A stretch of DNA of 64,000 nucleotides from contig CAYVLY010000001.1 in the NCBI GenBank assembly GCA_964452565.1, forward strand, positions 386,897 through 450,896, in the 5' to 3' direction. Below, in pieces: positions 3,925 through 62,167 of this stretch. The notes below the pieces were generated by a model that did not search any database, was not told where the DNA came from, and saw only the letters and a list, made by a program, of their open reading frames with translations. Positions within the stretch are counted from its first letter, which is position 1. Each line of letters begins with the position of its first letter. The DNA is from an uncultured Gammaproteobacteria bacterium. Its GTDB lineage: Bacteria > Patescibacteriota > Patescibacteriia > UBA9934. The translations under genes and the position numbers were made by a program.

Positions 3925-3994
3925 CAGAACCCAGAAAAAAACAAAAGAATCGACTTTCGCCGACCCTCATCTGGCTTCTTCTTTCTGGGTTCTG
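3925..3994 (-). promoter_or_regulatory. long hairpin immediately downstream of ftsA stop (13-bp perfect stem CAGAACCCAGAAA/TTTCTGGGTTCTG, ~44-nt loop) followed by TTCTGCTTTT; candidate partial terminator or processing site between ftsA and ftsZ
   Basis: Inverted repeat seen in the sequence; located in the 216-nt ftsA-ftsZ spacer. Confidence 0.45.
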
Positions 3995-5247: not shown

Positions 5248-5284
5248 AGTGTTTATATACTACCCTATTTTACCGTATTCTATC

Positions 5285-5671: not shown

Positions 5672-5685
5672 ATAAATAATGGCTT

Positions 5686-7049: not shown

Positions 7050-7154
7050 AGTCTACAAAGGTTATAAAGGTGATTAGAGGTTATAAAGGTGATTAAATGG
7101 CATCTCTACAGCCTTTAATCACTTTTTATTACCTTTGCCACCTTTTATCACTTT
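7050..7154 (-). promoter_or_regulatory. GTGAT/ATCAC repeat module (R1) upstream of the TSP3-family gene 6090..7049
   Basis: Read on the coding strand: 3x AAAGTGAT, then 2x TAATCACCTTTATAACC (17-nt direct repeat), then ATG. TATAAC -10-like box about 20 nt before the start. Can fold as GTGATTAAAGGC/GCC(A)TTTAATCAC. Confidence 0.5.
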
Positions 7155-7841: not shown

Positions 7842-7938
7842 AATTTATAAAGGTTATAAAGGTGATCAGAGGTGATAAAAGGTATTAAACCTTTCATCAC
7901 TTTTTATTCCTCTATCACTTTTAATCACTTTTGTTATT
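7842..7938 (-). promoter_or_regulatory. GTGAT/ATCAC repeat module (R2) upstream of the TSP3-family gene 7155..7841
   Basis: Coding strand: AAAAGTGATTAAAAGTGATAGAGGAATAAAAAGTGATGAAAGGT-TTAAT-ACCTTTTATCACCTCTGATCACCTTTATAACCTTTATAAATT-ATG. Contains a 12-bp hairpin with one G.U pair and shares the ATCACCTTTATAACCTTT block with R1. Confidence 0.5.
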
Positions 7939-8850
7939 TTACCTCAGTGGATCATATCCTCCAATCACCTCTGTGCCATCCTGGTATCCATCATTATCTG
8001 TATCTGAATCTGCTGGATCTGTTCCATGCTCAAATACCTCATCATAATCTAGTAATCCATCATCATCTGAATCTGTATCTCGATCGCTAGTTCCATAATA
8101 ATCCTCTTCATCACCGTCTAATTCATCAAAATCCCTGTCTCCTGGCCCAACCATCTCTAAACAAGCATATTTGTAATCTCGGATTCCAACTAAATAACAT
8201 GGGGCCGGATCACGTGTTTCAATTGCTTCTGCGATTCTCGCCCCGTATTCACATTGCGCATCAGATATAATTTCATTGTCGCAATTACCTTCGATAATTG
8301 CATTCAAAGCCCATAACGCACGACAATTATCTACTTTTTCTGAATCTGAATAATCCTCGCAGTCCTCATAGCCGTGATCTTCACCAAGTGTCTGGGTCAC
8401 AATAGCATCATTACAACTATTCTTTTTATCTTGATCTGCGATACCTTTGCAGTCATTGATATCTAAAGATGTAAGGGCAGATAATGTTGCGCAAGAATCA
8501 TAGTCCTCCCCCTCAAGCTCATCACAATAACTAATGTCTCCGGTTTGCTGAGCAAGCCTAGGAGCAGCGCTTGCAATACATTTATCTACATCATCCTCGC
8601 TTTGACAAGATTCTATATATAGCCTTGTATTGTTTTCAACGGTCTTATCTCCACCATTAAAGAATAGGCCAATGACAAATACTAGAAACCAAATTGCCAA
8701 TACAACCGCCACAATGGCTACGACAATCTTAATCACAAGCCCAGACTTCGCGCGTATCTTATCTTTCAAGCTTACAACCTTTGTACCCTCTTCATCCAAC
8801 TCGTACCAATCAACCTTACTTTCATCAAATTGTTTTTGTTTGTCTTGCAT
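7939..8850 (-). CDS. single-pass membrane protein with Cys-rich ectodomain and C-terminal bacterial TSP3-like Ca-binding repeats
   Basis: TM segment LVIKIVVAIVAVVLAIWFLVFVIGLFF; C-terminus DRDTDSDDDGLLDYDEVFEHGTDPADSDTDNDGYQDGTEVIGGYDPLR. Confidence 0.6.
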   Translation of the reverse strand: MQDKQKQFDESKVDWYELDEEGTKVVSLKDKIRAKSGLVIKIVVAIVAVVLAIWFLVFVIGLFFNGGDKTVENNTRLYIESCQSEDDVDKCIASAAPRLAQQTGDISYCDELEGEDYDSCATLSALTSLDINDCKGIADQDKKNSCNDAIVTQTLGEDHGYEDCEDYSDSEKVDNCRALWALNAIIEGNCDNEIISDAQCEYGARIAEAIETRDPAPCYLVGIRDYKYACLEMVGPGDRDFDELDGDEEDYYGTSDRDTDSDDDGLLDYDEVFEHGTDPADSDTDNDGYQDGTEVIGGYDPLR

Positions 8851-14800: not shown

Positions 14801-17800
14801 GAGATAGAACATGTTCCAATTAACGCCTCTGTATCAGTTATTTCACATACTTCCTGGCAGTCTGTGTCAGCACTACAAGACTCGCCAGTTGATGAGCATG
14901 TGTATACACATGCGTCGGTTCCTTCATATTGGCAAGATGAAGAACATCCATCGCCATCAACTGTATTCCAGTCGTCACAGTCCTCACCCGTCTCAGTGGA
15001 GCCATTTCCGCAGATTCCATAATAAGTCTCTGATCCGCTTGCAGTACAAGCTGATGTACATCCGTCTGGGATATTTGTTTGACCTACATCAAACAAACTA
15101 CTTGCAACTGTAACCCATTCCGCTACATCCTCATCACTAACAATAGGGTCAGTCCATGACCAGTCATAGCCATAACCACTCAATTCCTGACCTGCAACAG
15201 AGCAGCTATCTGGATCTCCATATGCAGTGACCTCGTAATGCTGTGTATCGCCTATTGCCTCAAGTGTCTGATTTTCAGGGGCAAGTGCGATGCTGCTTAC
15301 CAAACAAAGTGCATCATCGTCCTTTGATCCAAAAGTCCAAGAGAAATCATCTCCATAGTTTGTTCTAGTAAGTGCTACGCCACTATTTGATATAGCAGAT
15401 CCTGACACTACAACTCTGTAGAACTCAGATTCCTTCAAGCTCGTACCGTAATCGCTGTCCGCAATAGTCAATGTCACCTCTGAACAACCAACTGATTCCA
15501 CGCTGCTGCAACTAGCTGTAGTTGTTATTTCTGAAACCACCGCACATAGCTCATTTGAGCAGGAATACAATGTTATATAATCAGTTATTGAATCATCCAT
15601 CACCACATTAAATGTAGCGCTAATTGCGCCATTCACGCATGCAGATGAACAATCTGGCTGATAGTCGCTAACATACGGATCTTCAAAATTAACAGTAACT
15701 TCTGCATCACCAGTGGTTCCGCTATCTGATTCTTCTGCTGTCAAAATAGTAATTCCTTCTGCAACACCAACTGCAGATATGCAATAATCTTCTGTCATTT
15801 CCTCACAATCTGTAAGGCCAATATATGAATATGTGTCTACATCCCAATCCCAACCATAACTTGCAGGATTCAAGACCTGACATTCTTGCAATGGCAATGC
15901 ATTGAACTCAGAATCTTCACCCTGCTCTTCAATCGTGGACGAGGTTGGGCTGACCATCACCTCTTCAATCTCACAATCTGCTTCACTTGGACCTGTAGTA
16001 AATGTCCAAGTCACATCCTCCTCAAGAGTTTGGCCAACGCCTGTATCTGAGTACGATGTAAGATCGTCCGTCACCCAAACAAGATATGAGGTGCTGGTTT
16101 TAAACTTCCCATCGTTATAAGAAGAATCTAAAGTCCATGTAAACGATGTTCGCTCAGTACTCGATGAGGCATATACCGACCCGCTTACATCATCGTCATC
16201 AAAATCAACATTGCACCTGCTATCAGAGCACTCAAAAATCTTAATGTTGTCGGTCGAAATAGTATCTTCATCCATGACAGTACTAAAAGACGCTCTAATC
16301 ACTGTATTGGTGCACGACTCTGTTGTATAAATTAGGTTTGGAACTGCACTAACCAAATCGTCAGAACACTCAACAAGTAAAGTTGGTACATCTGGAATGT
16401 CGCCTGTTGAGAAATACCAAGCATAACCTCCAGAAACATCAGCCGCGACCTCCTCTTCAACAGTTCCAACTTCAAAATTCAATTCATTACTTTCTTCTAG
16501 TGCCGACGAAGTAACAGATACTGGCCCAGTCTGGGTACCAGAAGGAACGGTCACCGTTACACTATCATCATCCCAATCCTCTACCGTGCCAAAAACTGAA
16601 CTATAAAATTCTACTGATCCTGCTGTTGACCCCAGCCTTTGACCATAGATAATAATAGTATCGTCAACCTCTGCGATATCTGGATCAATCGCACAAATTC
16701 CAGGAGTGGGTTCATCGTCAGTAACTGTAAAGTCAATATCATCTGAATCAACTCCAGCTTGTGTTGTTATATAAAGGTCGTAATCCCCTGCTTCAACATC
16801 GCTTTCATTAGTAAACTCTTCTGGAACTATGATTGTAATCTCATCATCACTCCAGTAATCATCCTCACAAGCATCTGGGAAATCAACACTACCCTGCGCG
16901 ACATATCCGCTAGTTTGATCTTCAAACCAAACACTTCCAATGGCAGCACCAAAGTTTGTACCTGAAATAGTGACATACTGACCCACGCCACCCTCTTCAG
17001 GATCTATAGAATAAATTGTTGGTATTTCCTCATCGCTATACTCAACTCCAAAGCTTATTTCGTTCGAAGTTACTCCATCAACTGTTACAGACACGTCAAC
17101 AAATTCTCCTGCCGTTAACGACGGCACGGTCACGACCGCAGACGCATCTGACCATGTTGAATAGCTACTTGCTTCAGTTGTATCAAAATAAATTGATGAA
17201 TCGCCCACTGAATCACCGAAGCCGAGCCCTGATAGCGTAACCGCGTCTCCTACCTCAGCTTCATCAGGAGCTATGTTACAAAGATTTGGACGCTCAGTTT
17301 CATTAACATCAAAATCATCAATCAACGTTCCTTCATCATTGTCAGTTGAGTCAGTATATCCAGATGGCGAAACTTCAACAGTAATAGGCCCATCATCAGC
17401 TCCTTCTGGTACTTCTGCAATGATCTGATCAGACCACCACCCCTCACCACAGGTTGGAATGTCAGCCTCTACCGTGCCGCCAGCGCCATCAGAAAAATAG
17501 ACCGAGCCTCTTGTTCCAAACCCAGAACCAGAAATAGTTACATAAGTGCCAACTGCTCCGTTTGAAGGTGAAATGCTCTCGATCTCAGGATATGAAACAC
17601 ATGTGCCATCTTCGCATGTCCCACTTGCACAATCATCGTCCTCCTCACATGAATCGCCATCACATGAGCCACAACTACCACCACAGTCAGTTCCCTCTTC
17701 ATCTTCGTCCTGCGTTCCATTGAAACAATGCGCTGGCAAAATCTTAATTCGAACTGAATCTGTGTCTTCGTTTCCTGCAATATCTGTCACAGTAACCTCA

Positions 17801-18837
17801 AGCGTGTAACGAGTGTCCTCTTCAGTGTCATCTGTATACCAAGTGCTTTCAATGGTTACATCTGATAAGTCAGATCCGCTTGCTGATACAGTGTCAAACC
17901 AATCATCACCAGCATAAAAATCCGCGCTCGATATCTCACTGTCATCTGTTGCTGATACTTGAACTAAACTTGAACTGTCTGTTGAGATATTCTCGCCGCT
18001 CTCAGGATAAGTAACACTCACATCAGGATCTTCGGTGTCAACTAACTCACCTGTGGTGAAAGTTGACGTACAGTCTGAAACCGCACAATCAAGCGAGGTT
18101 CCGGTCGAACTTTCAATATCGCCGTCTACAGTAACGGTGTACTGGGTATTTTCATCAAAACAATATCTATCTTCGTTTGGCTCAGGGCATGCTTCAGATG
18201 GCATGAACTCAATGCTGTTTCCTGAAATCTCCAAAGTTCCACTTACCTCATCGCCTGTTTCAGTATTTGTAATTGTGATATTCCCTTCAACTGTATCTTC
18301 ATCCAATGTTCTACTGAACGTGACCTCAGCTACGACATTACGAATCGACACTTCGCCTTCTGGTGAATAACCCGCAACTGCAAACGAAGTTACTGAACCT
18401 CCACCATAAGAACCACCCGCCCCACTATCACTACTTGTATAATCGCCATCACCGCCTGTGGCTTCTAATAAGGCATTTAGCACAAACGTCGTAATCGACC
18501 ACGATAATAATATTATCGCAAGCCCAATAAACCCGTTGAGAAGGATCTTCTTTGCTTTATCTACCTTGTCCGCCTCACCTCTTGCCGTCATCCACATGAA
18601 ACCACCGTATAGCACTATTACAACCGCAATAACGCCCAGAACAGTCAGGAATGTCCTTATAATCTTCGCAACAACGATTCTAAGATCTTCGTCCTGCAGA
18701 CCCGATACATCACCCACTTCCTCGAGTTCGTCGACTTGAGCATGGGTTACTTGCATTGGCACTAAGACACCTCCTGTTATTGTAAACAGGACTGCAAGCG
18801 AGCTTATGAATAGAGTTAAACGTTTGAAAAACAGCAT
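8863..18837 (-). CDS. giant (3324 aa) cell-surface adhesin-like protein with N-terminal signal peptide plus two-TM TrbC/VirB2-like pilin anchor module and a multi-domain ectodomain
   Basis: Single uninterrupted 9975-nt ORF. N-terminus: signal peptide, then VIAVVIVLYGGFMWMTARGEADKVDKAKKILLNGFIGLAIILLSW (two hydrophobic helices). Ectodomain: Big_5-like Ig domains; IPT/TIG-like ISPSNGAVGTYVTISGSGFG; many Cys-rich repeats of the form CGDGxxDxGEECDDGNxxxGDGCSSxC (DUF4215/Myxococcus-type cysteine-rich repeat); a TSP3 repeat DTDGDGIPDDEDNCPDDSNPSQLDTDGDGVGDECE; a vWA domain with MIDAS motif VIDLSKSMS. Confidence 0.85.
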   Translation of the reverse strand: MLFFKRLTLFISSLAVLFTITGGVLVPMQVTHAQVDELEEVGDVSGLQDEDLRIVVAKIIRTFLTVLGVIAVVIVLYGGFMWMTARGEADKVDKAKKILLNGFIGLAIILLSWSITTFVLNALLEATGGDGDYTSSDSGAGGSYGGGSVTSFAVAGYSPEGEVSIRNVVAEVTFSRTLDEDTVEGNITITNTETGDEVSGTLEISGNSIEFMPSEACPEPNEDRYCFDENTQYTVTVDGDIESSTGTSLDCAVSDCTSTFTTGELVDTEDPDVSVTYPESGENISTDSSSLVQVSATDDSEISSADFYAGDDWFDTVSASGSDLSDVTIESTWYTDDTEEDTRYTLEVTVTDIAGNEDTDSVRIKILPAHCFNGTQDEDEEGTDCGGSCGSCDGDSCEEDDDCASGTCEDGTCVSYPEIESISPSNGAVGTYVTISGSGFGTRGSVYFSDGAGGTVEADIPTCGEGWWSDQIIAEVPEGADDGPITVEVSPSGYTDSTDNDEGTLIDDFDVNETERPNLCNIAPDEAEVGDAVTLSGLGFGDSVGDSSIYFDTTEASSYSTWSDASAVVTVPSLTAGEFVDVSVTVDGVTSNEISFGVEYSDEEIPTIYSIDPEEGGVGQYVTISGTNFGAAIGSVWFEDQTSGYVAQGSVDFPDACEDDYWSDDEITIIVPEEFTNESDVEAGDYDLYITTQAGVDSDDIDFTVTDDEPTPGICAIDPDIAEVDDTIIIYGQRLGSTAGSVEFYSSVFGTVEDWDDDSVTVTVPSGTQTGPVSVTSSALEESNELNFEVGTVEEEVAADVSGGYAWYFSTGDIPDVPTLLVECSDDLVSAVPNLIYTTESCTNTVIRASFSTVMDEDTISTDNIKIFECSDSRCNVDFDDDDVSGSVYASSSTERTSFTWTLDSSYNDGKFKTSTSYLVWVTDDLTSYSDTGVGQTLEEDVTWTFTTGPSEADCEIEEVMVSPTSSTIEEQGEDSEFNALPLQECQVLNPASYGWDWDVDTYSYIGLTDCEEMTEDYCISAVGVAEGITILTAEESDSGTTGDAEVTVNFEDPYVSDYQPDCSSACVNGAISATFNVVMDDSITDYITLYSCSNELCAVVSEITTTASCSSVESVGCSEVTLTIADSDYGTSLKESEFYRVVVSGSAISNSGVALTRTNYGDDFSWTFGSKDDDALCLVSSIALAPENQTLEAIGDTQHYEVTAYGDPDSCSVAGQELSGYGYDWSWTDPIVSDEDVAEWVTVASSLFDVGQTNIPDGCTSACTASGSETYYGICGNGSTETGEDCDDWNTVDGDGCSSSCQYEGTDACVYTCSSTGESCSADTDCQEVCEITDTEALIGTCSISETECSLDTDCTYAASTCDADSSSCCGDGDLDTGEECDDNNSTNGDGCSSSCLNEGSQAAGATCGNSDIAHEDDQGGEDCDDGNASSGDGCSSICLNEGTTAITQVAAECGDGTIDEPYETCDDSNTTDGDGCSSSCIREGADADYASFGSSGECGDEILDQHSSTSAGEDCDGEEWCSDDCLLSGSSIYYTEASVCGDGIAGYGELDACEGSSYGAGPDGYTDPVQLALISTDAGQQVDMSTNLATATVQVTYDDLTAYTSLYLSCVAEDDDDCDDGYGPATTLCCMERPDPELFPNGSNACLNAEIYGLFNMKMETSTFEGNVFIVLDITTTDDGTCPSTHSTIALGGSSDSWWQRALNVFTMIFAPIVHAQTSGDCILPITGYTQSAVGDGVYKVVFNHDQALAAEASYTIYVTGDTLGDDDRDGVLTSYGVAMDGDASQSFETYQSICGLDEVDIIDGDEDSPNAFTEVDEEHTFTATAYSYDTGSAQAIEPISGYTWEWTSWSSDDDDDDDGIGSFLTRSSESVGSVSAATADYTSTGSSGEANIATKAIVTEDTSGESFYCSSDASITGCTTDSECQETCSSGVCSISGESCDLDTDCEYVSATCESTVVSGTEDITIVVCDNPWPALDYFPFEDNADGLHAGSGVSAGVGRGWMNFSTYYCRDAGEDGDTDDDYPELRVVMAQERGSTEVLKEYFFNVVNDNGPTGDAIGVRFVMNSSYLSPMAWYYANGFSGNPTQTTIDGFQAVVDGRSTYVAVPNYVTGSLYPNIAIISYNYGASSTAVDIFDMMLENLSLVTNVDDMALCYSSTAGNYTTSCESDLDCTATGYDCADIKSKLMRDMDRLGDVTDLAEYMSSSTPQIESGSFVRSLTSSVWGSWDDVLATDLGVSVDSDPLDSYQGCGSGRYRDYDETTCVDEVAGEYLCPRGSRTYHYRAYGDSGYVIGAELEFKTGSWFSDIDSDTTDDEQIIIGGYGTGDGFQNGPAFCDGSTIWGASDICGDGIVGSGELCEVGDTTSSTTACDSDGDGTNDGYYVDECDSTCAAYSTTTTCDATSCGNGVTETGEDCDDGSLNGSYGFCGADCLNTSRTYCGDGTLAGGEACDCGSSGTASGAAYGGGSCTYLNGVYDASASNTCAWDCSGAGPYCGDGDADDEEDCDGTTDTYSGMLCTSGNSTDEDKCDEDSDCIMIVAAGSGSSSTGQCGETDTTDETKDTANECPYTTVCVDGDADKMGEPCDTDGDCDSSGVADGICSSIEYQTTRTRTCDDSTCLWAYDWADIDCIAPGSCGDGVVDDGEECDDGNDDSTDSCTIECTENICGDGYVYDGEESCDEGSANGTICTASYGSTCAYCNDNCVNVTSSGSFCGDGEINGDEVCDADDVSYYYYDSTNGVYDYCDVADEGGTVEVDEDGEIILDGSTGTTYTCTMVGVCNGGSDNGDHCMADSDCEYSDCALPVCNDSCANMCPFTYTAQSIALETNELGAKRTYTTDISPFDSSGLVISTGNSSTLYIPECTVSDGLTMTINDDDREYPDVEIMFVIDLSKSMSSDLGDSTRIEVLESAVGDAITALHEAYDGVSADMGIGWAYIGGLHQTYTAPVDTDGDGIPDDEDNCPDDSNPSQLDTDGDGVGDECEEEVPEPIECDCGELVLDEADCEDICGDDDDDGGIDDDGLGGTDPAETEGATGYDPSIKDTKLATLSFWDQAIDMFKPLVAWASYSSSGEGKFLMLEAASSAGVSTTESDTQSSITSGLVVDSTTGTPIYESIEDAALGFSGYADNEYMIIFTDGNIYNTDYESLYFDHIDTEDTDGDDVMDTAEYMRGVSNILDDIKDAGVEVFSAVLSDSDCEIAQMQRWSSMECTDNSDSCGAMTTEGNHDCEVPDNGITYAYSATTSDELVAMYEAIVDAILNVTISLTFDGETESTTIEAGLSRSIELPTTFSCDGSNEQTVTLRTAYNGEGTVELSDIYLNMCAQ

Positions 18838-26950: not shown

Positions 26951-27237
26951 GTCCCCAGCCAATTTTTCCCAGCTAATCTTAAACTCAGGCCTGTCACGAG
27001 CACGTCCAGGTTTATCCTCGGGCAGGAGAACGGAATTGCATTTTGCGTGACATTTATCCATATAAACAAATGGAGCTCAAAATGCCCGTTCGTATGTACC
27101 GAGGTATACCTGGACAGCGCAGTGAGGCCAAGCAGTTTCTTTTCCCCATTTCTTTGCTGCTTCAAAGAAATGGGGCCAGGGGTTAGGGGCAGGATGCCCC
27201 ATAACAAAACAGGGCCTTGCGGCCTTGTTTTATTTTT
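26951..27237 (+). ncRNA. copy 1 of an about 240-nt structured repeat family (candidate sRNA or MITE) with 3' rho-independent terminator
   Basis: Shares >85% identity with 46210..46489 and a core with 61947..62167. Internal hairpins CCCCATTTCTTTG-N7-CAAAGAAATGGGG and GGGGCA-GGA-TGCCCC. Terminator ACAGGGCC-TTGC-GGCCTTGT plus TTTTATTTTT. Confidence 0.5.
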
Positions 27238-34550: not shown

Positions 34551-34642
34551 CAGATCCCCTCCAGCTCCCCCCTCGAAAGGGGGAGGGTCTAGATTCGAAA
34601 TTAGACCCCTCCTTGCGAAGGAGGGGGTAGGGGAGGTCTGTG
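34551..34642. repeat. dual-hairpin REP/RPE-like element copy A (der-pth spacer)
   Basis: CTCCCCCCTCGAAAGGGGGAG hairpin, then GGTCTAGATTCGAAATTAGACC, then CCCCTCCTTGCGAAGGAGGGG hairpin. Family members at 53535, 54409, 56494 and 61069. Confidence 0.7.
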
Positions 34643-42794: not shown

Positions 42795-44636
42795 CTATTT
42801 TACTTCTGACCGATCTATCCCGCCCCTTGTTGGCGCTGTGCCTGGCTTTGTTGTCTTTGCCTGCTTCCCGGCTCCAACACCAAGCTTACTGGCATCAACA
42901 GCAGTATCACCAAACTTAAATCCAGTCTTCATTGACTTTCTTTCTGCCAGCTCTTCTGGAGTCTGAACCTCTGGTGCTTCTGGTGCCGGCGTCTCTGCTG
43001 GCGCAGCCGCTTCTGGCCCTCTAGTCTTTAACAGTTCCGCTTCTGCCTTAATTTCTCTATCTAGTTGCTTTTTGCGCTCTGCTATTTCTTCAAGTCCAGC
43101 CTCGGCCTCGTCCAATCGTGCTTTGAGTGCATCGTGATCCGCTTTACTAAGCTCTGTATTTTCTAGCTGCTCCTCGAGACCTTTAATCGTTTCTGTTAAT
43201 GATGCTTCATCCTCAACAATCTTATTAAGCCTTTCAGAAAATTCATCTTGTTTTCCCGAGCCTTCAAGAGCAGCAATCCTATCACTAAACTGCTGTTGTT
43301 CATTCTTCTTCTCCTTAGCCTTTTCTTTCTTTAACGTCATCTTACCCATTTTCTTAATCTGTTTCCTACGTTCTTCATCTTCCTTCGCAAGCTTCTCATC
43401 GAGCTTCTTAATAGCCTCACCCGGCTCTCCAAACTTTGCTTCTTCCTGTCCTGTGATTTGTTTTAAGAATGACCAAAGACCAAGCGCCATTCGTGGAATC
43501 GTGGGAAGTGATCCAAGAATTGGCTTTCTACCTGCTATAAACTGACCCAACACACCAACTGTACCCATAGATGCAGCGGCAGCAGCCCATCCAACCTTTT
43601 TGACTTTACTATATTCTTCTTCATCAACCTCTTCCTTTGCAGCTTGCTCCTGCTGTTCCATACCAGCACCAAACTCTTGCCCCGCACCCCGTCTAGCTGC
43701 TTCGTTTATTTCCGTTCCTGGAACTTGCCCGCGATCGCCACCTCTATCACGACCTAAGGCATCAGCTGCTGCACCAGCAGCAGCACCAACTGCTGCTTCA
43801 ACGCCAGCACCAGCCTGGCTATCATCTGGTGGTTCTATTCCACCATCAGCCCCAGGTGCTTCAATGACATCAATAGCATTATCTAACGCCTGATCCCAGC
43901 GCTGCCTTGTCTCGCGATTTGATTCTTCTACTTCTGGGGGCAGTCCTGCGCCACCGCCAGTTAACTCAAATGTTTTGCTTTTTACCAACTTTATTACGTT
44001 TGCCAAATCCTCATAATCCACGCTGTCATCTAATTGATCGACATTCTCGAGCATTAGCAACATTTGAATTGCATCCTTTGTATCTTCATCCGCTCTTCTC
44101 TCCATCTCACGCAGAGTGTCCAAAAAATCTGGATTTTTAACAGCTTCCAGTACGGACTGGTAATATTCTGTATTATCACCTGGTGGTTCAACGTCTGCGT
44201 CTGGTGGTTCAACGTCTGCGTCTGGTGGTTCAACGTCTGCGTCTGGTGGTTGAATCTCTTGCCCTGTACCAGTGTCATCAGCAGGCGGCTCAACATCAGC
44301 AGGCGGCTCAACATCAGCAGGCGGCTCAACATCAGCAGGCGGCTCAACTCCACCTTCTCGATCCATACGATCAGCAACAGCATCGCCAAGATCGCCGATT
44401 GCCTCAGCCTCAGCACCTGCTCTAGCTTGTGCGCGCAACTCTTCCTCAGCAGCAAAGCGGGCCGCAGCTTCCTCATCTAGTTCAACACGAGCCGCCTCCT
44501 CAGCCGCAGCCTCTGCAGCAAGCTGCTCTGGAGATACTTCTGGCTGCTCTGCAGCTGCCTCAGGAGTGCCTTCAACTCCCTCTTGTTGACCTTCTTTTTT
44601 GTCTGGTTCATTTACCATATGTATACATAATATCAA
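42795..44636 (-). CDS. acidic low-complexity coiled-coil protein with tandem VEPPAD / DADVEPP repeats and one predicted TM segment
   Basis: 613-aa ORF; probable start MVNEPDKK at 44618. 4x VEPPAD (18-nt period, 44272..44345) and 3-4x DADVEPP (21-nt period, 44188..44270). Lys/Glu-rich coiled-coil C-terminal half. Confidence 0.55.
   Translation of the reverse strand: MILCIHMVNEPDKKEGQQEGVEGTPEAAAEQPEVSPEQLAAEAAAEEAARVELDEEAAARFAAEEELRAQARAGAEAEAIGDLGDAVADRMDREGGVEPPADVEPPADVEPPADVEPPADDTGTGQEIQPPDADVEPPDADVEPPDADVEPPGDNTEYYQSVLEAVKNPDFLDTLREMERRADEDTKDAIQMLLMLENVDQLDDSVDYEDLANVIKLVKSKTFELTGGGAGLPPEVEESNRETRQRWDQALDNAIDVIEAPGADGGIEPPDDSQAGAGVEAAVGAAAGAAADALGRDRGGDRGQVPGTEINEAARRGAGQEFGAGMEQQEQAAKEEVDEEEYSKVKKVGWAAAAASMGTVGVLGQFIAGRKPILGSLPTIPRMALGLWSFLKQITGQEEAKFGEPGEAIKKLDEKLAKEDEERRKQIKKMGKMTLKKEKAKEKKNEQQQFSDRIAALEGSGKQDEFSERLNKIVEDEASLTETIKGLEEQLENTELSKADHDALKARLDEAEAGLEEIAERKKQLDREIKAEAELLKTRGPEAAAPAETPAPEAPEVQTPEELAERKSMKTGFKFGDTAVDASKLGVGAGKQAKTTKPGTAPTRGGIDRSEVK
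44188..44345 (-). repeat. in-frame tandem coding repeats (21-nt x about 4 and 18-nt x 4)
   Basis: TGGTGGTTCAACGTCTGCGTC units and ATCAGCAGGCGGCTCAAC units, read directly. Confidence 0.9.
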
Positions 44637-46209: not shown

Positions 46210-46489
46210 GTCCCCAGCCAACCTTCTAACCTCGGGCCTGTCACGAGCACGTTCATGCTCATCCCCTGGCAGGAAGACGGAATAGCATTTTGAGTCCAAT
46301 TTATCCATATATACAAATTGGATCGCCAAAATGCCCGTCTGTATGCCTGGGGTATGCATGGACAGCGCAGTGAGGCCAAGCAGTTTCTTTTCCCCATTTC
46401 TTTGCTGCTACAAAGAAATGGGGCCAAGGGTTAGGGGTTAGGGGCAGGATGCCCCAATAACAAAAGACCGGCGATCTGCCGGTCTTTTG
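46210..46489 (+). ncRNA. copy 2 of the about 240-nt structured repeat family with 3' terminator
   Basis: Near-identical to copy 1, including the GTCCCCAGCC start. Hairpins CCCCATTTCTTTG-N7-CAAAGAAATGGGG and TCCAATTT...AAATTGGA. Terminator GACCGGC-GATCT-GCCGGTC plus TTTT. Confidence 0.5.
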
Positions 46490-51270: not shown

Positions 51271-54200
51271 TTATTTTACAATCCTCACAACCCCATCATT
51301 TGCATTGACTTCGACTTCATCGCCGTCTTTCAAAACTTGTGTCGCAACCTTGGATCCGATGATGCATGGCTTCTTTAATTCACGGGCCACGATCGCAGCG
51401 TGACAGATTACTCCCCCTTCGTCTGTAACAATCGCTGCGGCTTTTTTGATTGCTGGCAAGAAGTCAGGTGTAGTCATTGGAGAAACTAGGATCTCACCTT
51501 TTCGAAACTCACCGATCTGATCCTTACACTTTAGAACTTTAACAGTTCCCTGGACTCTTCCCTTGAATGCAACCTGCCCCTCTATACTTTGAACATCAGC
51601 GGGCACCTCTTCAAACTCGAAGTTAAGATCTGAATTACTCTGAATAAACTCATCTATCGTTATAGCATTAGCGACCTTAGGGGGCACCAAGACAAAGTGC
51701 TGCTTACGATCCTCCAAGACTGACTTATCGGGCACACTGAAAACCTCATCCAACAAGATCGAAGTTACCAAACGAGATAGTTCTGGATACAGTTCGATCA
51801 ATGTCGATCGAATTACTTCATCAGATCGATCAAAAAACTCATCCTTGTCCCTCCAAGCTCGCGCCTTTTCCTGCATCTCCTTAGGCAACCTTTTATCAAA
51901 CCCTGCATGATAGAGGATCACCAGGTCAGCCATCATTGCATAGAGCAGGTTGCTAAATTGATCAAATGCATTGGAATCAACAAGTGGCTTTTTCCAAAAT
52001 CCCCTCATAATATCTAGGTTTCGACCGTATCTCTCAAGCACCTTATCGAAATAATCTGGATTCTCTTCATGCTTCTTAACTACCCCTCCCATAAGATCCC
52101 ACATCACAGCCTCATTCTCCCAAACCTCTACGACGCCATCGTTGATGTAAAAAACATAAGGCGACTTCTGACCTATTTCAATCCCATGATACTTCTCTAA
52201 ACCTTCATCATTGGCATAAAACCAGGCCTGCTGGATAATAATCGAAAAATCCCGCGTATAAGCTTTTCGATAAATATCCCGAGGTTCTTTTTTAGACTCA
52301 AGCAGCTTGACAGTACCTTGATCTGCATTGACTTCTATGATGTCGCCACTACTAAGTACACTTGTTGCACACTTGGTTCCAACGACACACGGCTTCTTAA
52401 GCTCACGAGACACAATCGCGGCGTGGCTGAGCATTCCTCCAGCATCAGTTACAATCGCGCCAGCCTTTTTCATGAGTGGAACATAGTTTGGATCTGTCAT
52501 TCCAGTAACAAGGATCTCCCCTTCTTCTATTTTGGCGTCTTCAAAATTTGTAATGATTCTACACTTACCTGTTACGATTCCCTCGTACGCAGTTGTTCCT
52601 TTCAAAATCCCAGTATCGAGATTCTTCCAACCCTGTTTTATTCTGTCTACTTCATCAGCATTGAGAATCAGAGTATTGCCTGGGGTTAAATATACCCCGG
52701 ACTTTATATATCGTTGTTTTGCCTCGTCGAGAGATACGCTACAAGCTACCAGCTCATCGATGGTAAGCGTAGAGTAAGCTCGGTCATTGCCGCCCGTGAA
52801 GTGCTTAACCATTAAATTGATCAAATCTTCTGCATCTTTATAAATCGTCTCTGAATAGCGCCTTGCCTTTTCAAACTTTTTAGCCGATGCGCTGTAAAGC
52901 CTATCTGGTAAAAAGTTTATAACAGCTTTGGTCGAAATCTGATACGCACCATACGCACTGTACACTTCTTTCAATTTCGCTAATGTATCCTGATCGGTCA
53001 AATCTCCACTCAGATTTTTAATTAAAGCGGTAAGCCCATCTGCAGTCTTTACAAATGAATCACACCACCTATCAACAACAGCCTCGTCATCAATCACCAA
53101 CTGTGCCAAGTGGCTTCCATGCGATTCATACGAATCCATTGGAAGGTAGGCTGACATTATTCCGTTCTTAATGACTAGTAGCACAGAATCAAGCGAAGAA
53201 CCAAAAAATTCTTGAGGCTTGCTAAAATATACACCCTCACCCAGCGACACTTGCAAAAGTGAAAACGGTCCCTCCCAATCTTTCTGCCAGTTGCGACTAG
53301 CGATTTTTGATACGTTGCTTTTTTCTTTATCAAACGACCCCAACGTAGTAATCGGCCGGCTTTGGGTGATGTAAAACTTGCCATTCTCATAAGCCCATTC
53401 GATATCGCAAGGAAAGCCATAGTGGTCTTCAATCTTTTTTATCAGTTCAGCCAGTTCAATGATCTGAGATTCTGACAAGACTTGTGCCTCGGCTTCGTCA
53501 GATGCTAACTCGATCCATTGATTATTAGACGTAGAGACCTCCCCTATCCCCTCCTTCGTAAGGAAGGGTCTAGCCACTCGACTCTCCCCCTTACGAAGGG
53601 GGAGTTGGAGGGGGTCAGACCCAAGAACTAGCTTCTTATTTTGAACATTCACGTTGACATCAAGAATCTCAAGCGTATCTTTTTGCACAACATAAGCATC
53701 TGGTGTTATTGATCCTGATACTATTGCCTCGCCTAAACCAAACCCGGCCTCGATAATCATTTGGTTTCTGTCTTGAGTCACAGGATGAACCGAGAATGCG
53801 ATTCCTGAGGTTTCTGACTGGATCATCTTTTGCACAACAACAGCGACTGATATGTGATGATTTTCTAATCCTTGCTCAAATCGATAATAGATTGCTCGAG
53901 GAGTAAACAAAGATGCCCAGCACCTCTGGACGTCCCTCAAAAGTCTTTCCTGAGTTGTATTCAAAAAGGTATCCAGCTGCCCTGCCCATGCCGCAGATGC
54001 GCTATCCTCTGCTGTTGCGCTTGATCGGACCGCGACGTAGTCGGCTCCTAATTGATCAAACTGCGATTGAACTTCCTTCGCAATATCATCAGGCATCACA
54101 GCGCTCATAATCAAACCCTGGATCTTCTCAGAGGCCTCATCAATAGTGTGAATAGCTTCAGTATTCACAGTATCAAGGATTGATGCAATCTCAACTCCAA

Positions 54201-54375
54201 GGTCGGTCTCTTCCAAAAATCTATCAAACGCATCGGCTAGAATCACATACCCTGGGGGTACAGCTAGACCCGCCTGAGTCATCTCGCCAAGCGACGCACC
54301 TTTCCCACCGGCTTGATCAACGTCGCTTGATGCTATTTTTTCAAATACTTTTGTATAACTCATATCAAAAAACAC
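51271..54375 (-). CDS. PEP-utilising enzyme family protein: PPDK_N-type ATP-grasp N-domain plus two phosphohistidine swivel domains (PEP synthase / rifampicin-phosphotransferase-like)
   Basis: N-terminal DQAGGKGASLGEM; two copies of G-G-x-x-S/C-H-A-A-I-V-x-R-E-L-K-K-P-C-V/I-x-G (GGMLSHAAIVSRELKKPCVVG; GGVICHAAIVARELKKPCIIG); 1034 aa. Carries an in-frame REP-like insert at 53535..53620. Confidence 0.8.
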   Translation of the reverse strand: MFFDMSYTKVFEKIASSDVDQAGGKGASLGEMTQAGLAVPPGYVILADAFDRFLEETDLGVEIASILDTVNTEAIHTIDEASEKIQGLIMSAVMPDDIAKEVQSQFDQLGADYVAVRSSATAEDSASAAWAGQLDTFLNTTQERLLRDVQRCWASLFTPRAIYYRFEQGLENHHISVAVVVQKMIQSETSGIAFSVHPVTQDRNQMIIEAGFGLGEAIVSGSITPDAYVVQKDTLEILDVNVNVQNKKLVLGSDPLQLPLRKGESRVARPFLTKEGIGEVSTSNNQWIELASDEAEAQVLSESQIIELAELIKKIEDHYGFPCDIEWAYENGKFYITQSRPITTLGSFDKEKSNVSKIASRNWQKDWEGPFSLLQVSLGEGVYFSKPQEFFGSSLDSVLLVIKNGIMSAYLPMDSYESHGSHLAQLVIDDEAVVDRWCDSFVKTADGLTALIKNLSGDLTDQDTLAKLKEVYSAYGAYQISTKAVINFLPDRLYSASAKKFEKARRYSETIYKDAEDLINLMVKHFTGGNDRAYSTLTIDELVACSVSLDEAKQRYIKSGVYLTPGNTLILNADEVDRIKQGWKNLDTGILKGTTAYEGIVTGKCRIITNFEDAKIEEGEILVTGMTDPNYVPLMKKAGAIVTDAGGMLSHAAIVSRELKKPCVVGTKCATSVLSSGDIIEVNADQGTVKLLESKKEPRDIYRKAYTRDFSIIIQQAWFYANDEGLEKYHGIEIGQKSPYVFYINDGVVEVWENEAVMWDLMGGVVKKHEENPDYFDKVLERYGRNLDIMRGFWKKPLVDSNAFDQFSNLLYAMMADLVILYHAGFDKRLPKEMQEKARAWRDKDEFFDRSDEVIRSTLIELYPELSRLVTSILLDEVFSVPDKSVLEDRKQHFVLVPPKVANAITIDEFIQSNSDLNFEFEEVPADVQSIEGQVAFKGRVQGTVKVLKCKDQIGEFRKGEILVSPMTTPDFLPAIKKAAAIVTDEGGVICHAAIVARELKKPCIIGSKVATQVLKDGDEVEVNANDGVVRIVK
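53535..53620. repeat. dual-hairpin REP/RPE-like element copy B, embedded in frame in the PEP-utilising enzyme CDS
   Basis: CCCCTCCTTCGTAAGGAAGGG, then GTCTAG, then CTCCCCCTTACGAAGGGGGAG. Translated as PLQLPLRKGESRVARPFLTKEGIGEV without a stop. Confidence 0.7.
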
Positions 54376-54408: not shown

Positions 54409-54446
54409 GGCAACCCCCTCTATCTCCCCCTTGGGAAGGGGGAGGA
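54409..54446. repeat. REP-like element copy C (single hairpin CTCCCCCTT-GGG-AAGGGGGAG with GGCAACCCCCTCTAT leader)
   Basis: Identical leader and hairpin to copy D at 56494. Confidence 0.7.
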
Positions 54447-56493: not shown

Positions 56494-56583
56494 GGCAACC
56501 CCCTCTATCTCCCCCTTGGGAAGGGGGAGGACCTTGATCTAGATCCCCCCTCCTTCCCAAGGAGGGGCTGGGGGTGGTTGCCT
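56494..56583. repeat. dual-hairpin REP/RPE-like element copy D in the scpA-scpB spacer, abutting the scpA stop
   Basis: GGCAACC...CTCCCCCTTGGGAAGGGGGAG...GATCTAGATC...CCCCTCCTTCCCAAGGAGGGG...GGTGGTTGCC, an outer inverted repeat enclosing the two hairpins. Confidence 0.7.
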
Positions 56584-60614: not shown

Positions 60615-61064
60615 CTATTCATTTTCAGTTTCAATATAATATCCAGCCTCAAAACTTGGCCGCACAACCTCGCCATTTACCATTGCTGCCATGTCATCGT
60701 CCATGTTAAATACCTCGTCACCATCATCAACATGCAAGATAGCGATGTAGGTGTCTCCTGGGATCATTGTACTGGTTAGATCAATAGTGTAATCGTACGA
60801 TCCGTCGTAGAAGTACTCTGAGATTCCTATGGTTTCGCCTGGGGCAATGTCCATAGACTCATGGATGGTCACAAAACCTGGTTCGCTATTCTCAACATAC
60901 AAATAGACTTGATTGAGATCATACTGATCATCAACTTCGATTAAACCTATATCAACTTCGACTGGACCAAAGTCAGGAGAAGCATCAGGAGCAATCATGA
61001 AAAATAGGCCAATGATAGCTAATATTATTATTACGGCACCAAGGCCTAAAAAGTCTTTTTTCAT
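60615..61064 (-). CDS. signal-anchored hypothetical protein
   Basis: N-terminal TM LGLGAVIIILAIIGLFFMIA; acidic ectodomain. Confidence 0.45.
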   Translation of the reverse strand: MKKDFLGLGAVIIILAIIGLFFMIAPDASPDFGPVEVDIGLIEVDDQYDLNQVYLYVENSEPGFVTIHESMDIAPGETIGISEYFYDGSYDYTIDLTSTMIPGDTYIAILHVDDGDEVFNMDDDMAAMVNGEVVRPSFEAGYYIETENE

Positions 61065-61068
61065 AGTT

Positions 61069-61147
61069 CGCCTCTCCCCCTTCCCAAGGGGGAGGGTCTA
61101 GATCTAGTCTCCCCTCCTTACGAAGGAGGGGTTGGGGGAGGTTTCTC
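61069..61147. repeat. dual-hairpin REP/RPE-like element copy E (between map and the downstream gene)
   Basis: CTCCCCCTTCCCAAGGGGGAG, then GGTCTAGATCTAGTCT, then CCCCTCCTTACGAAGGAGGGG. Confidence 0.7.
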
Positions 61148-61934: not shown

Positions 61935-61946
61935 AAGCTCTTTCTT

Positions 61947-62167
61947 GGGCCACCACGAGCACGTTCAGGTTTATCCTCGGGCAGGAGAACGGAATTGCAT
62001 TTTGATGTCCAATTTCTCCATAGATACAAATTGGATCTCCAAAATGCCCGTTCGTATGCCTGAGGTATACCTGGACGAGCGCAGTATGGCCACGCCCTTT
62101 CTTTTCCATATTTCTTTGGGCGAGCAAAGAAATATGGCCTGGGGGCTACGGGGGACGGAGTGCCCCC
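61947..62167 (+). ncRNA. copy 3 of the about 240-nt structured repeat family (more diverged, with compensatory substitutions)
   Basis: Hairpin CCATATTTCTTTG-N6-CAAAGAAATATGG compares with CCCCATTTCTTTG...CAAAGAAATGGGG in copies 1 and 2; both stem sides changed. TCCAATTT...AAATTGGA; 3' hairpin GGGGGACGGAGTGCCCCC. Confidence 0.5.

Follow-up and report, generated by a model that had tools for sequence, protein, structure and literature searches.

Repeat copies in the window

The window, which is the whole 64-kb stretch of DNA analysed, contains five copies of a G/C-rich double-hairpin element, designated A to E. Four are full or nearly full and one is a half. The copies, their two hairpins (H1 and H2) and the gene that hosts copy B are as follows.

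34553-34638, plus strand: copy A, full, in the spacer between der (engA) and pth (nhmmer E=3e-18); H1 at 34565-34585 with one mismatch in its stem, H2 at 34606-34626, both on the plus strand
51271-54375, minus strand: host gene of copy B, encoding a 1034-aa PEP-utilising enzyme with a PPDK_N domain and two PEP-utilizers (swivelling His) domains
53536-53616 (profile match 53535-53617), minus strand: copy B, full, in frame within the host gene (nhmmer E=1.5e-20)
54409-54446, plus strand: copy C, left half only, consisting of the terminal segment and H1 (54424-54444, plus strand), with the stop of a Sm_multidrug_ex gene on one side and the start of the PEP-utilising enzyme gene on the other (nhmmer E=7e-9)
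56494-56582, plus strand: copy D, full, in the scpA/scpB spacer (nhmmer E=6e-20); H1 at 56509-56529 and H2 at 56547-56567, both on the plus strand; terminal inverted repeats GGCAACC...GGTTGCC
61073-61144, plus strand: copy E, without the left terminal segment, in the spacer between map and a DUF7282 gene (nhmmer E=3e-17); H1 at 61074-61094 and H2 at 61111-61131, both on the plus strand

An element profile trained on 77 copies from other genomes only, and then searched against the 64 kb with nhmmer, recovers exactly these five copies and nothing further. The sequence-only reading had listed five copies at these places and had described four as intergenic, and both claims are borne out, with A, C, D and E all lying in spacers between genes. 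The H1 pattern CTCCCCC-N7-GGGGGAG has five matches in the window and the H2 pattern has four, and neither has a match in dinucleotide-preserving shuffles of the window. Three of the copies are defective (the stem mismatch of A, the half copy C and the truncated copy E). Copy C has 39 nt identical to the left half of copy D, and its orthologue at L001, a locus in another genome (positions 3925-3975), is decayed and has a nested hairpin in the H1 loop. In copy A the GTG at 34640 is the earliest in-frame start available to the pth ORF. The suggestion that this start is false is reasonable, since the Pfam match of pth begins at residue 11 and an ATG lies at 34664.

Copy B within the PEP-utilising enzyme gene

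The host gene has the PPDK_N ATP-binding domain (Pfam, 2.9e-94) and the mobile His domain (PEP-utilizers, 9e-50), and so satisfies the criteria for a PEP-utilising enzyme. Its closest solved chains are PEP synthases and rifampicin phosphotransferases (names as deposited). The true start is probably the ATG at 54363, and the corresponding database protein (P0001) has 1030 aa. Copy B is on the minus strand like its host gene, and hence the plus strand reads H2 before H1. Its parts, all on the minus strand, are listed below in the order of the gene.

53607-53616, minus strand: left terminal segment, GACCCCCTCC on the gene strand, whose complement is the mirror "third strand" of H1 (mirror score 8, 3-nt loop)
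53584-53604, minus strand: H1, CTCCCCCTT-CGT-AAGGGGGAG, 9 bp, perfect
53569-53583, minus strand: variable centre, differing from the L001 orthologue by several substitutions and a 3-nt indel
53548-53568, minus strand: H2, CCCTTCCTT-ACG-AAGGAGGGG, with one C-to-T change in the stem and a loop that is the reverse complement of the H1 loop
53536-53544, minus strand: right terminal segment, GGGGAGGTC on the gene strand, the mirror third strand of H2 (mirror score 8)

The 81 nt of copy B are in frame and free of stop codons, the ORF is continuous, and the encoded segment is DPLQLPLRKGESRVARPFLTKEGIGEV, corresponding to about 27-28 codons or residues 254-281 of the host protein. The predicted in-frame insertion of about 30 residues without a stop is thus confirmed at about 28 residues. 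Since the reading frame is open through the element, the ribosome would add these residues to the enzyme, although translation is inferred from ORF continuity only; copy B appears to be a repeat of non-coding DNA that came to lie within a gene and is read as part of it.

Alignment of orthologues supports the proposal that the segment is lineage-specific. The insertion point is occupied by at most 10 residues in 117 of 119 homologues of the host protein, none of which carries the segment, and the same element at the same site is found in only one, a relative with 84% identity. An independent JGI assembly has the same element at this site. Judged from this comparison of sequences, copy B is old and vertically inherited, because the relative has it at the same site. 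The host gene on either side of the insert is 85% identical to that of the relative at the protein level and 56% identical at silent sites, which indicates that it is under purifying selection.

The expected loop position also agrees with the structure prediction. In the AlphaFold model pLDDT is below 50 over residues 253-283, which are flanked by strands at 247-250 and 286-289. In this model copy B lies in a surface loop, at a beta-hairpin turn in the ATP-binding domain, and the roughly 28 added residues are probably disordered.

Element architecture and relation to BoxC

Each half-element consists of a C-stem, a 3-nt loop, a G-stem, a second 3-nt loop and a mirrored G-stem. Two such 9-bp polypyrimidine/polypurine halves lie tail to tail on opposite strands, and all full copies are H1/H2 heterodimers. 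In the terminal inverted repeats the purine arms of the hairpins recur as mirror repeats. This mirror third segment, 8-9 nt long after the 3-nt loop, is present at eight of the nine window hairpins (6 nt at H1 of copy A) and likewise in 229 of 304 hairpins from loci L001-L111. Two details of the initial description do not hold: the loops, given as 3-6 nt, are 3 nt in both hairpins of every copy, and the palindrome GTCTAGAT, taken to be a built-in central part, is not a family feature, as the centre is variable (8-30 nt in 121 copies).

The H1 and H2 loops are reverse-complementary in 49 of the 121 copies (shuffle mean 12.6, maximum 24), and because of this complementarity the whole element would be able to fold as one long hairpin. 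Copies with complementary loops have a single long-hairpin fold with predicted energies of -45 to -67 kcal/mol. Among the 121 copies the outer stem covaries between AA/TT and GA/TC.

By this architecture, as read from the sequence, the element is of the BoxC / PIT / TMECO kind, intrastrand triplex motifs known from the 1990s onwards (Bergler 1992; Hoyne and Maher 2000; Holder et al. 2015, PMC4666352). In TMECO, as published, a loop of 3-6 separates a G/C-rich pyrimidine stem from a purine stem, each of 9, and a second loop of 3 nt, often TTA or CCG-like, leads on to the mirrored purine stem, giving the pattern 9-[3-6]-9-3-9. TMECO copies are likewise numerous and dispersed and form inverted pairs of two slightly different types (described as A+B); their number varies strongly among relatives, and no link to a transposase, phage or plasmid has been reported. 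The sequence family is distinct, since the window stems, CTCCCCCTT and CCCCTCCTT, do not fit the TMECO pattern CCCTCNCCC-N3-6-GGGNGAGGG-N3-GGGNGAGGG, which does match the E. coli control locus. Reports of TMECO are confined to Proteobacteria, and in E. coli K-12 it was described as "always intergenic", whereas the window family occurs in Patescibacteria and several phyla, with 17-35% of sampled copies inside genes. The likeness to triplex motifs rests on a sequence rule alone, and actual triplex formation has not been shown. For TMECO itself, published studies in E. coli did not detect a triplex footprint in vivo and could assign no function other than local instability. No function or enzyme for BoxC / PIT / TMECO was found in the literature searched: no enzyme partner is mentioned for TMECO (PMC4666352), and none is named in later intrastrand-triplex papers. 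A literature search with the element sequence strings gave no match.

Distribution and copies inside genes

The insertion hypothesis would have been refuted if distant orthologues carried the same peptide segment, or if the element were unique to this window. Neither is the case, since 117 of the 119 homologues lack the segment and the element occurs at more than 110 loci in other genomes. Its family is spread over many phyla, Patescibacteria included.

The sampled copies that lie inside genes are in frame, as in polA, uvrB, uvrC, murC and infB. Of 121 copies, 42 are spanned by an ORF that stays open for 60 codons or more to either side, and in 20 of these it does so for 150 codons or more. 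The ten host ORFs tested (PolA, UvrB twice, a UvrD-like helicase, MurC, UvrC, IF-2, PfkB, Wzy_C and a PolyA_pol-family nucleotidyltransferase) all have Pfam domains on both sides of the insert or split by it, and in-frame insertions into other coding sequences, for which a check had been proposed, do occur in other genomes. At the UvrB insertion point a solved UvrB has one residue and L093 has 33. The genes are unrelated, and both orientations and all frames are represented among the copies. A stop codon cannot occur in an arm of purines or of pyrimidines alone, and therefore several reading frames stay open, which, together with the position of copy B in a loop, explains how it survives in its gene. 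In Patescibacteria such repeats belong to many housekeeping proteins (PolA, UvrB, UvrC, MurC, IF-2), which bears on how genes are called, proteins aligned and structures predicted in these genomes.

Association with DUF559 nucleases

Among 149 ORFs located within 200 nt of elements, the largest recurrent family is DUF559 with 12 members, and the next has three. DUF559 is the sole ORF cluster that always adjoins the element, all 12 members being flanked on both sides (Pfam E-value about 1e-33). A reciprocal search, by a peptide pattern derived from the element-associated seeds, found 80 metagenome loci by protein alone, and 43 of these have the strict motif within 220 nt (background, 13 strict-motif matches in 153 kb). 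Because the pattern came from those seeds, the search covers one DUF559 subfamily only. A perfect pyrimidine-arm hairpin lies within 100 nt at 57 of 70 DUF559 loci, against a background of 0.018 per 100 nt. The mirror rule is followed in 53 cases versus 10 for the direct orientation. The upstream and downstream flanks of the same locus are mutually complementary (p=1e-7), and DUF559 proteins with the same flanking stem are more alike (53.5% versus 45.5% identity).

DUF559 also occurs close to TMECO in E. coli K-12, where the family member ycjD is 168 nt from a TMECO. Across E. coli, ycjD is present in 3378 of 5426 genomes, and the median number of other TMECO-like sites is 22 in ycjD-positive and 4.5 in ycjD-negative genomes (p=8e-10, uncorrected for phylogeny). 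Genomes of the O157:H7 type have kept 14 TMECO-like sites without ycjD. The reciprocal search and the E. coli data support the link between DUF559 and the element.

No DUF559 gene lies within the 64-kb window, which does not cover the rest of the source genome. The pairing of a nuclease with a cognate hairpin, by which the repeat is present on both flanks and its type follows the nuclease type, is accordingly seen in relatives and other genomes and not in the window. An instance in the window's own lineage is locus L035 from a Ca. Uhrbacteria relative, whose map-DUF7282 spacer, orthologous to that of copy E, holds a half element, a DUF559 gene and a full element. The element is inverted between the two genomes, and thus they do not form a clean empty-versus-filled pair.

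The arrangement resembles the Ssn (GIY-YIG)-NTS/dRS3 system, in which a small single-domain nuclease gene has its own hairpin repeat on both sides, the repeat is also dispersed at high copy, and nuclease and repeat variants go together (PMC11893778). That association was established by the same flank-counting logic, with 31% of homologues having the repeat on one flank and 14% on both (PMC11893778). The two systems differ in that Ssn has the GIY-YIG fold and DUF559 the Vsr-like PD-(D/E)xK fold, and single-stranded DNA activity has been demonstrated for Ssn but no activity for DUF559. The closest solved chain of the DUF559 proteins, 3hrl, is uncharacterised. No paper tying the family to repeats was found in the literature on DUF559, PF04480, COG2852 and YcjD.

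A proposed role for the nuclease and a parasitic alternative

The explanation that we prefer, and consider somewhat probable, is that copy B is a read-through repeat of the BoxC kind that is spread and kept by a DUF559 partner nuclease, the role of the nuclease being inferred. The partner would be a small single-domain Vsr-like PD-(D/E)xK enzyme that recognises a folded or paired half-unit and nicks beside it; repair of the break templated on another copy would then spread and preserve the repeats. Such a scheme would be analogous to that of RAYT with REPINs and of Ssn with NTS repeats. In the window genome the enzyme may act in trans from elsewhere or may have been lost. DUF559 may be the partner of the family, but this role has not been demonstrated, and there are no cleavage, binding or transposition data for any DUF559 protein. 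Adjacency could also mean that the gene targets the repeats and does not move them, and no mechanism is at hand by which a nicking enzyme creates insertions at new, non-homologous sites.

A broader proposal, which we hold only tentatively, is that DUF559 proteins (YcjD and thousands of "endonuclease domain-containing proteins") are dedicated nucleases of BoxC/PIT/triplex repeats across bacteria, and that in the small genomes of Patescibacteria the repeats take up in-frame positions within housekeeping genes, where they are actively maintained. If true, this would be the third nuclease-repeat partnership after RAYT-REPIN and Ssn-NTS and would place a PD-(D/E)xK member on that short list. DUF559 is very large as a family and has a solved structure but still lacks an assigned role, and the link to BoxC/PIT/TMECO would provide a function both for this large domain and for a 30-year-old orphan repeat.

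It is also conceivable, if unlikely, that DUF559 parasitises the repeats. As a free-standing gene of the homing-endonuclease type it would insert where two half-units meet in a palindromic junction, and the repeats would spread otherwise, for example by another transposase in trans or by hairpin template switching during replication. The gene always lies between the mirror-segment sides of two inverted half-units, as this reading would have it, and gene-free "inside-out" junctions exist as well (L009, L010, L042, L046, L078, L101 and L110). Loci L015 and L075, 8 kb apart in the same genome, share a unit of element, gene and half element, so the DUF559 gene itself duplicates. The nearest characterised relative of DUF559 is the homing endonuclease I-Bth0305I, a distant one by sequence (3r3p, E=1.3e-4), and that Vsr-like family (Dassa 2009, Taylor 2011) is documented to include selfish nuclease genes that are free-standing and have hairpins immediately upstream of their start codons. 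Those genes, however, reside in phage introns, inteins or fractured genes, have unique targets and lack a dispersed repeat family. A parasitic gene would also leave unexplained the lower repeat numbers in ycjD-negative E. coli and the preservation of silent sites in in-gene copies (below), and no other recurrent transposase is found among the 149 neighbouring ORFs.

Silent-site conservation

In four orthologous gene pairs silent sites are 95% identical in the element and 53% identical in the host gene. Inside the element, conserved codons agree at the third position in 22/22, 20/21, 14/17 and 26/26 cases, compared with 56%, 45%, 54% and 58% outside it. The 20 codons on either side of the element have silent-site identity at background, and recent recombination is rejected as the source for this reason. 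In copy B the nucleotide sequence of the hairpin and mirror modules has been kept constant; the spacers, the centre and the silent sites of the host gene have all diverged. Conservation this sharp is unexpected for a decaying selfish insert and still needs explaining.

Copy D is 78/87 identical to its positional orthologue in a Ca. Uhrbacteria MAG (L106) against 60-63 for its paralogues. In copy B, orthologue and paralogue cannot be told apart by overall identity, and the hairpin loops match the orthologue. Homogenisation within the genome is thus disfavoured, by the far closer match of copy D to its orthologue and for copy B by the loop sequences only.

These same data, namely the strong and sharply bounded conservation in four gene pairs and the greater similarity of copy D, and of the loops of copy B, to the positional orthologue, suggest that the repeats might be host cis-elements under selection for a structural role of the DNA or RNA, such as replication or recombination pause sites, mRNA stabilisers or translational pause sites, with the DUF559 adjacency secondary. 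The folds are predicted to be very stable, and in vitro triplex formation and polymerase stops have been published for TMECO. Nevertheless, a host function is distinctly improbable given that the copies lie in unrelated genes in both orientations and all frames, that presence differs among close relatives (copy D is missing from L001), that copy number swings widely within E. coli, and that three of the window copies have defects. In the literature, tests for promoter and terminator activity were negative and no regulatory role emerged; in the window, no copy between 53 and 62 kb is called as an intrinsic terminator and none has a T-tail.

Comparison with REP, RPE and MITE families

The element had been labelled REP/RPE-like. 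RPE-like is apt as an analogy for its behaviour in genes and not as a family assignment, and a place among the REPs fails on the tag and RAYT-neighbour tests. Like REP/BIME/REPIN sequences with their RAYT (TnpA-REP), the family has short G/C-rich palindromes, inverted heterodimers that give a long hairpin, old and vertically inherited copies without target-site duplication, and a single small nuclease-type gene flanked by repeats. It differs in lacking the GTAG or CGTC tag (4/77 and 10/77 copies, respectively, with TTAG or CTAG spacers instead in 57/77), in its mirror third segment, which is not a REP feature, and in a neighbouring gene that encodes DUF559 (PD-(D/E)xK) and not an HUH Y1 transposase and that can be multicopy (L015, L075). 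RPEs, too, are palindromic repeats that have inserted in frame into many housekeeping genes of unrelated kinds, where they are presumably translated and accommodated as loops. They are about 100-150 bp long and restricted to Rickettsia, whereas the window family spans phyla. Two RPE families belong to the CGTC-tagged REP superfamily and CGTC is not conserved in the window family; short of a direct alignment to RPE consensus sequences, no sequence or architectural relation was seen.

Movement as a MITE by a DDE transposase, or as a REP/REPIN by a RAYT (HUH Y1), might be read from the terminal inverted repeats, the small size, the many dispersed copies and the inverted doublets with their long hairpin, and the missing target-site duplications would fit the REP/IS200 world. 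It is nonetheless very improbable. Direct repeats beside 79 copies are not above the shuffled control, which argues against a DDE transposase, the REP tags are scarce as noted, and neither Y1_Tnp nor another transposase recurs among the 149 adjacent ORFs. Viral carriage was not detected either, with 0 matches in 2.9 million viral contigs (IMG/VR). A merely incidental likeness to the repeats, with the 28 residues being an ordinary loop peculiar to the lineage, a lesion in a pseudogene or an artefact of assembly, is already contradicted. Although this loop is variable in the enzyme family and a few lineages have unrelated inserts of 6-31 residues there, copy B matches the profile with its full modular architecture, recurs at the identical site in the independent JGI assembly and leaves the 1034-codon ORF intact in a gene under purifying selection.

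A known RNA family for the element is rejected, as no Rfam match fits: at gathering thresholds Rfam finds three tRNAs only, and permissive searches add only sub-threshold hairpins of miRNA type. The H2 arm contains AAGGAGG, suggesting a Shine-Dalgarno role. Copies A and D are too far from the downstream starts, and the spacing fits only copy E, where the H1 arm is 9 nt before the DUF7282 start, and the DUF559 gene of L035.

Copies of the element in the window

The window (G+C 44%) has one repeat family with five members, as the sequence-only reading had proposed. The pattern of the first hairpin, H1 (CTCCCCC-N7-GGGGGAG), occurs five times and that of the second hairpin, H2, four times, with neither found in shuffled window sequence. 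A profile trained on 77 copies, all from outside the window genome, returned exactly the same five copies and no further match. Multiple alignment gives a common plan. From left to right, this is a terminal segment, (R)ACCCCCTC, then 2-3 nt, H1 (CTCCCCCTT-N3-AAGGGGGAG), a variable centre, H2 (CCCCTCCTT-N3-AAGGAGGGG), 3 nt, and a second terminal segment, GGGGAGGT(Y). Four copies are intergenic, again as proposed, and lie in short spacers with co-directional genes on either side.

Copies of the element
Copy A: der-pth spacer
Copy B: minus strand, as its host gene (51271-54375, minus strand, PEP-utilising enzyme)
Copy C: spacer between a small exporter gene and the PEP enzyme gene; left half only
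Copy D: scpA-scpB spacer
Copy E: spacer between map and a DUF7282 gene; without the left terminal segment

The H1 purine arm of copy E (GGGGGAG, minus strand; 61064-61094) ends 9 nt 5' of the ATG of the DUF7282 gene and may be its ribosome-binding site. That gene lies on the side where the missing terminal segment would be.

Architecture and naming

The terminal segments mirror the neighbouring purine arms: after a 3-nt spacer, 8-9 nt of the arm are repeated backwards, with T tolerated opposite A. This rule holds for 8/9 window hairpins and for 229 of the 304 hairpins of the other listed loci. The three-block plan is that published for BoxC/PIT/TMECO repeats as an intrastrand triplex motif, 5'-CCCTCNCCC-N3-6-GGGNGAGGG-N3-GGGNGAGGG (Holder et al. 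2015, PMC4666352), and the window element thus adds a new sequence family to a known type of architecture. E. coli K-12 has 23 such repeats, and 3610 were counted across 262 proteobacterial genomes; types A and B differ in their second loop (TTA and CCG, respectively), and each of the five inverted pairs of K-12 joins one type with the other (PMC4666352). TMECO has no transposon, phage or plasmid link and no regulatory role was found, but it is statistically associated with local rearrangement (PMC4666352). The window element is a tail-to-tail heterodimer of a BoxC/TM-type repeat, and head-to-head ("inside-out") arrangements are also present in the sampled loci.

The two modules covary. The loops of H1 and H2 are each other's reverse complement in 49 of 121 sampled copies (shuffle mean 12.6, maximum 24), and the outermost pair changes together, AA with TT or GA with TC. 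In computed folds, copies with complementary loops form a single hairpin of ~40 bp (-45 to -67 kcal/mol); the loops of copy E are not complementary, and its fold has two hairpins. As read from the sequence, H1 and H2 differ such that the long fold has T-G and C-A oppositions, always in the same places. T-G oppositions are the Vsr substrate class, which is a lead only.

The element is no DDE-type MITE, since target-site duplication is absent. The REP label of the sequence-only reading does not hold in the strict sense either, as the GTAG/CGTC tags are missing and RAYT is not recurrent beside the element. Under the better name of BoxC/TM-type repeat dimer, its finding is confirmed and its interpretation supported.

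Distribution

Uniqueness to the window would have counted against the earlier reading, but the element also occurs elsewhere. Scanning one genome per species for the exact double-hairpin pattern gave at least 110 loci. Those listed include Patescibacteria (recorded as Andersen-, Magasanik-, Uhr-, Falkow-, Taylor-, Specht- and Saccharibacteria), Poribacteria, Ignavibacteria/Chlorobiota, Gammaproteobacteria, Planctomycetota, Myxococcota, Chloroflexi and Thermodesulfobacteriota. The terminal segments are conserved across the listed loci though they were outside the search pattern. The pattern had no match in 2.9 million viral contigs.

Small extra hairpins are nested within the element at L001 3925-3975 and downstream of the DUF559 gene of L037, and upstream of H1 in L022, L025, L028 and L044 (all element-bearing loci of other genomes). 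Examples are GACCCGTCAGACGGGTC in the H1 loop and GGCCTTCGGCC between terminal segment and H1, which suggests that modules have been inserted into modules.

Copy B in the PEP enzyme gene

The host gene encodes a PPDK_N domain and two PEP-utilizers domains. Copy B reads through in frame as DPLQLPLRKGESRVARPFLTKEGIGEV with no stop, and the ORF is continuous across it; translation of the insert is inferred. When the N-terminal domain was aligned with 119 database homologues, 117 had at most 10 residues (mostly 2) at this stretch. The exception that matters is P0060, a homologue 84% identical to the host protein. Its contig, L001, is syntenic with the window (scpA, scpB, S11 peptidase, PEP enzyme) and has this element too, at an identical codon position and with two perfect hairpins. 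The AlphaFold model (mean pLDDT 84) has values under 50 in just a few short stretches, of which the longest, residues 253-283, has no secondary structure and is flanked by strands 247-250 and 286-289; gaps in the alignment with solved PEP synthases coincide with the insert site. The insertion is therefore real, lineage-specific and located in a loop, and it arose no later than the split of the two lineages. ScpB identity to the window is 88% in a Ca. Uhrbacteria MAG, 85% in L001 and 78% in Ca. Uhrbacteria UBA12070. The flanks of copy B have 85% protein identity but only 56% third-position identity in conserved codons between window and L001, so the host gene is under purifying selection.

L001 has long A/T-rich palindromes of another family (1595-1675, 3225-3330) in the scpA-scpB spacer, the place of copy D in the window, and behind the S11 peptidase gene. 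Sister lineages therefore have different hairpin repeats in the same spacers. The L001 PEP-enzyme locus (4021-8281) is called as two neighbouring ORFs of 719 aa and 697 aa, which share a protein cluster with a 1419-aa fused version; the gene in the window is a single 1034-aa ORF that differs in its C-terminal arrangement. Unrelated short inserts occur at residues about 250-285 of the enzyme family in other lineages (P0020, P0035, P0091). One reads IPAEAGIQ, which recurs in L041 at the 5' end of a stop-to-stop frame with uvrB, upstream of the likely UvrB start, and may be another repeat.

Residence inside genes

Residence in genes is family-wide. Within the listed loci, 42 of 121 sampled copies are spanned by frames with at least 60 open codons to either side, and 20 of these by frames with at least 150; both orientations and all frames are represented. 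A Pfam scan of ten element-spanning ORFs found bona fide genes in all ten, with domains flanking or split by the insert. The hosts are PolA, UvrB (two), a UvrD-like helicase-nuclease, MurC, UvrC, IF-2, a PfkB kinase, a Wzy_C protein and a PolyA_pol-family nucleotidyltransferase. The two UvrB proteins carry the element in the same loop in opposite orientations, and L093 has 33 residues at a point where solved UvrB has 1. Stop codons are impossible in the arms because these are purely pyrimidine or purely purine, and a typical copy is open in 2-4 of six frames. The parallel drawn earlier with Rickettsia palindromic elements is therefore apt for behaviour. In contrast, the TMECO copies of K-12 are reported to be intergenic without exception (PMC4666352).

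Conservation at silent sites

The element is conserved at silent sites. Third positions of same-amino-acid codons were compared in four orthologous gene pairs sharing an in-gene copy.

Third-position identity inside and outside the element
Window and L001: inside 22/22; outside 56%
L017 and L061: inside 20/21; outside 45%
L093 and L076: inside 14/17; outside 54%
L024 and L053: inside 26/26; outside 58%
Pooled: inside 82/86; outside about 53%

The observed changes are confined to spacers and centre; the hairpins, including loops, and the mirror segments are unchanged. A recent recombination tract is rejected, since third-position identity is at background in the 20 codons on either side. Homogenisation of copies within a genome is unlikely, because copy D matches its positional orthologue in L106 at 78 of 87 positions and its paralogues at only 60-63, and the loops of copy B are those of its orthologue and unlike those of paralogues. 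The modules evolve as though purifying selection acted at the sequence level, and there is no proven explanation for this.

DUF559 genes beside the element

DUF559, a family of small predicted Vsr-like nucleases, is statistically associated with the element. When all ORFs of the at least 110 listed loci were clustered, a single family was always element-adjacent (12/12 members in 11 genomes; L015 and L075 share a contig). This ~120-aa protein matches DUF559 at about 1e-33. A Pfam scan of 149 element-adjacent ORFs in the listed loci gave 12 DUF559 members and 3 for the next family. In gene orientation the geometry is constant: hairpin, 3 nt, mirror segment, 10-60 nt, gene, mirror segment, 3 nt, hairpin. 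Two inverted half-units thus enclose the gene, each with its mirror side towards it, and full elements are often present on one flank or on both.

The reciprocal test used 80 metagenome loci gathered by DUF559 peptide pattern alone. A strict H1 or H2 motif lay within 220 nt of DUF559 in 43 of them, on both sides in 22 (background 13 per 153 kb), and most of the rest have variant C-run/G-run hairpins of the same design. Perfect pyrimidine-arm hairpins lay within 100 nt in 57/70 loci (background 0.018 per 100 nt), at a median of 23 nt 5' of the start codon and 22 nt 3' of the stop. Within a locus, the upstream flank is complementary to the downstream one (p=1e-7), the mirror rule holds in 53 cases versus 10, and proteins with identical flanking stems have 53.5% identity versus 45.5%.

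The window itself has no DUF559 gene. In L035 (Ca. Uhrbacteria UBA12070; 76% identity to the window in Map, 78% in ScpB), the map/DUF7282 spacer is occupied by a half element, then a DUF559 gene, then a full element, where the window has only copy E; the element orientation also differs. A GTG within the L035 mirror segment, 7 nt past the AAGGAGG of H2, looks to be the start codon of the DUF559 gene.

The one DUF559 gene of E. coli K-12, ycjD, is flanked by fabI and sapF, and a type-A TMECO lies 168 nt past its stop. BoxC was reportedly first described downstream of envM, which is fabI. ycjD is accessory (3378 of 5426 complete E. coli genomes). With genomes sampled at even intervals along the ranking, 37 that carry ycjD had 16-30 other TMECO-like sites (median 22) versus 2-20 (median 4.5) in 22 that lack it (Mann-Whitney p=8e-10), a difference confounded by phylogroup. 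O157:H7-type genomes without ycjD still hold 14. Just upstream of ycjD, and overlapping its start codon, is a perfect 17-bp inverted repeat that has no relation to TMECO (NC_000913.3 1351760-1351830; L192 4258-4302). Holder et al. 2015 mention neither ycjD nor any endonuclease (PMC4666352), and a literature search, which excluded subscription-only literature, found no paper linking DUF559 to repeats.

A possible partner nuclease

The closest solved chain to DUF559 is 3hrl, an uncharacterised Neisseria protein (5.5e-29), and the closest characterised one is 3r3p, the Vsr-like homing endonuclease I-Bth0305I (1.3e-4). It is inferred that DUF559 may recognise the half-unit and nick beside it, and that templated repair would then both spread and preserve copies. 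RAYT with REPINs is a precedent for nuclease-repeat pairing. A closer one is the Ssn GIY-YIG nuclease with NTS repeats, a link found by flank association, like that of DUF559 here, and later proven biochemically (PMC11893778). The chief alternative is that DUF559 does no more than home into the repeats. A host function of the repeats is not excluded, and is compatible with the other readings. The cross-phylum residence in genes and the nucleotide-level maintenance are worth following up, as is DUF559 as candidate partner nuclease for an orphan repeat class.

Other repeats in the window

A second repeat, unrelated to the element, is a ~230-nt conserved unit in three copies, with an internal hairpin CCCCATTTCTTTG-N6-CAAAGAAATGGGG and no Rfam match. 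Copies 1 and 2 have 83-95% identity across the two repeat blocks, with a 7-nt indel between the copies, and the start codon of map is directly preceded by copy 3. Two very long ORFs are rich in internal repeats (families D1-D4 and D8).

Other repeats
26980-27200, 46227-46440, 61939-62155 (minus strand): ~230-nt repeat
8863-18837, minus strand: repeat-rich ORF, 3324 aa
21648-25856, minus strand: repeat-rich ORF, 1402 aa

At 44180-44365, the coding frame of ORF 42795-44636 (minus strand) contains perfect 21-nt and 18-nt tandem repeats.
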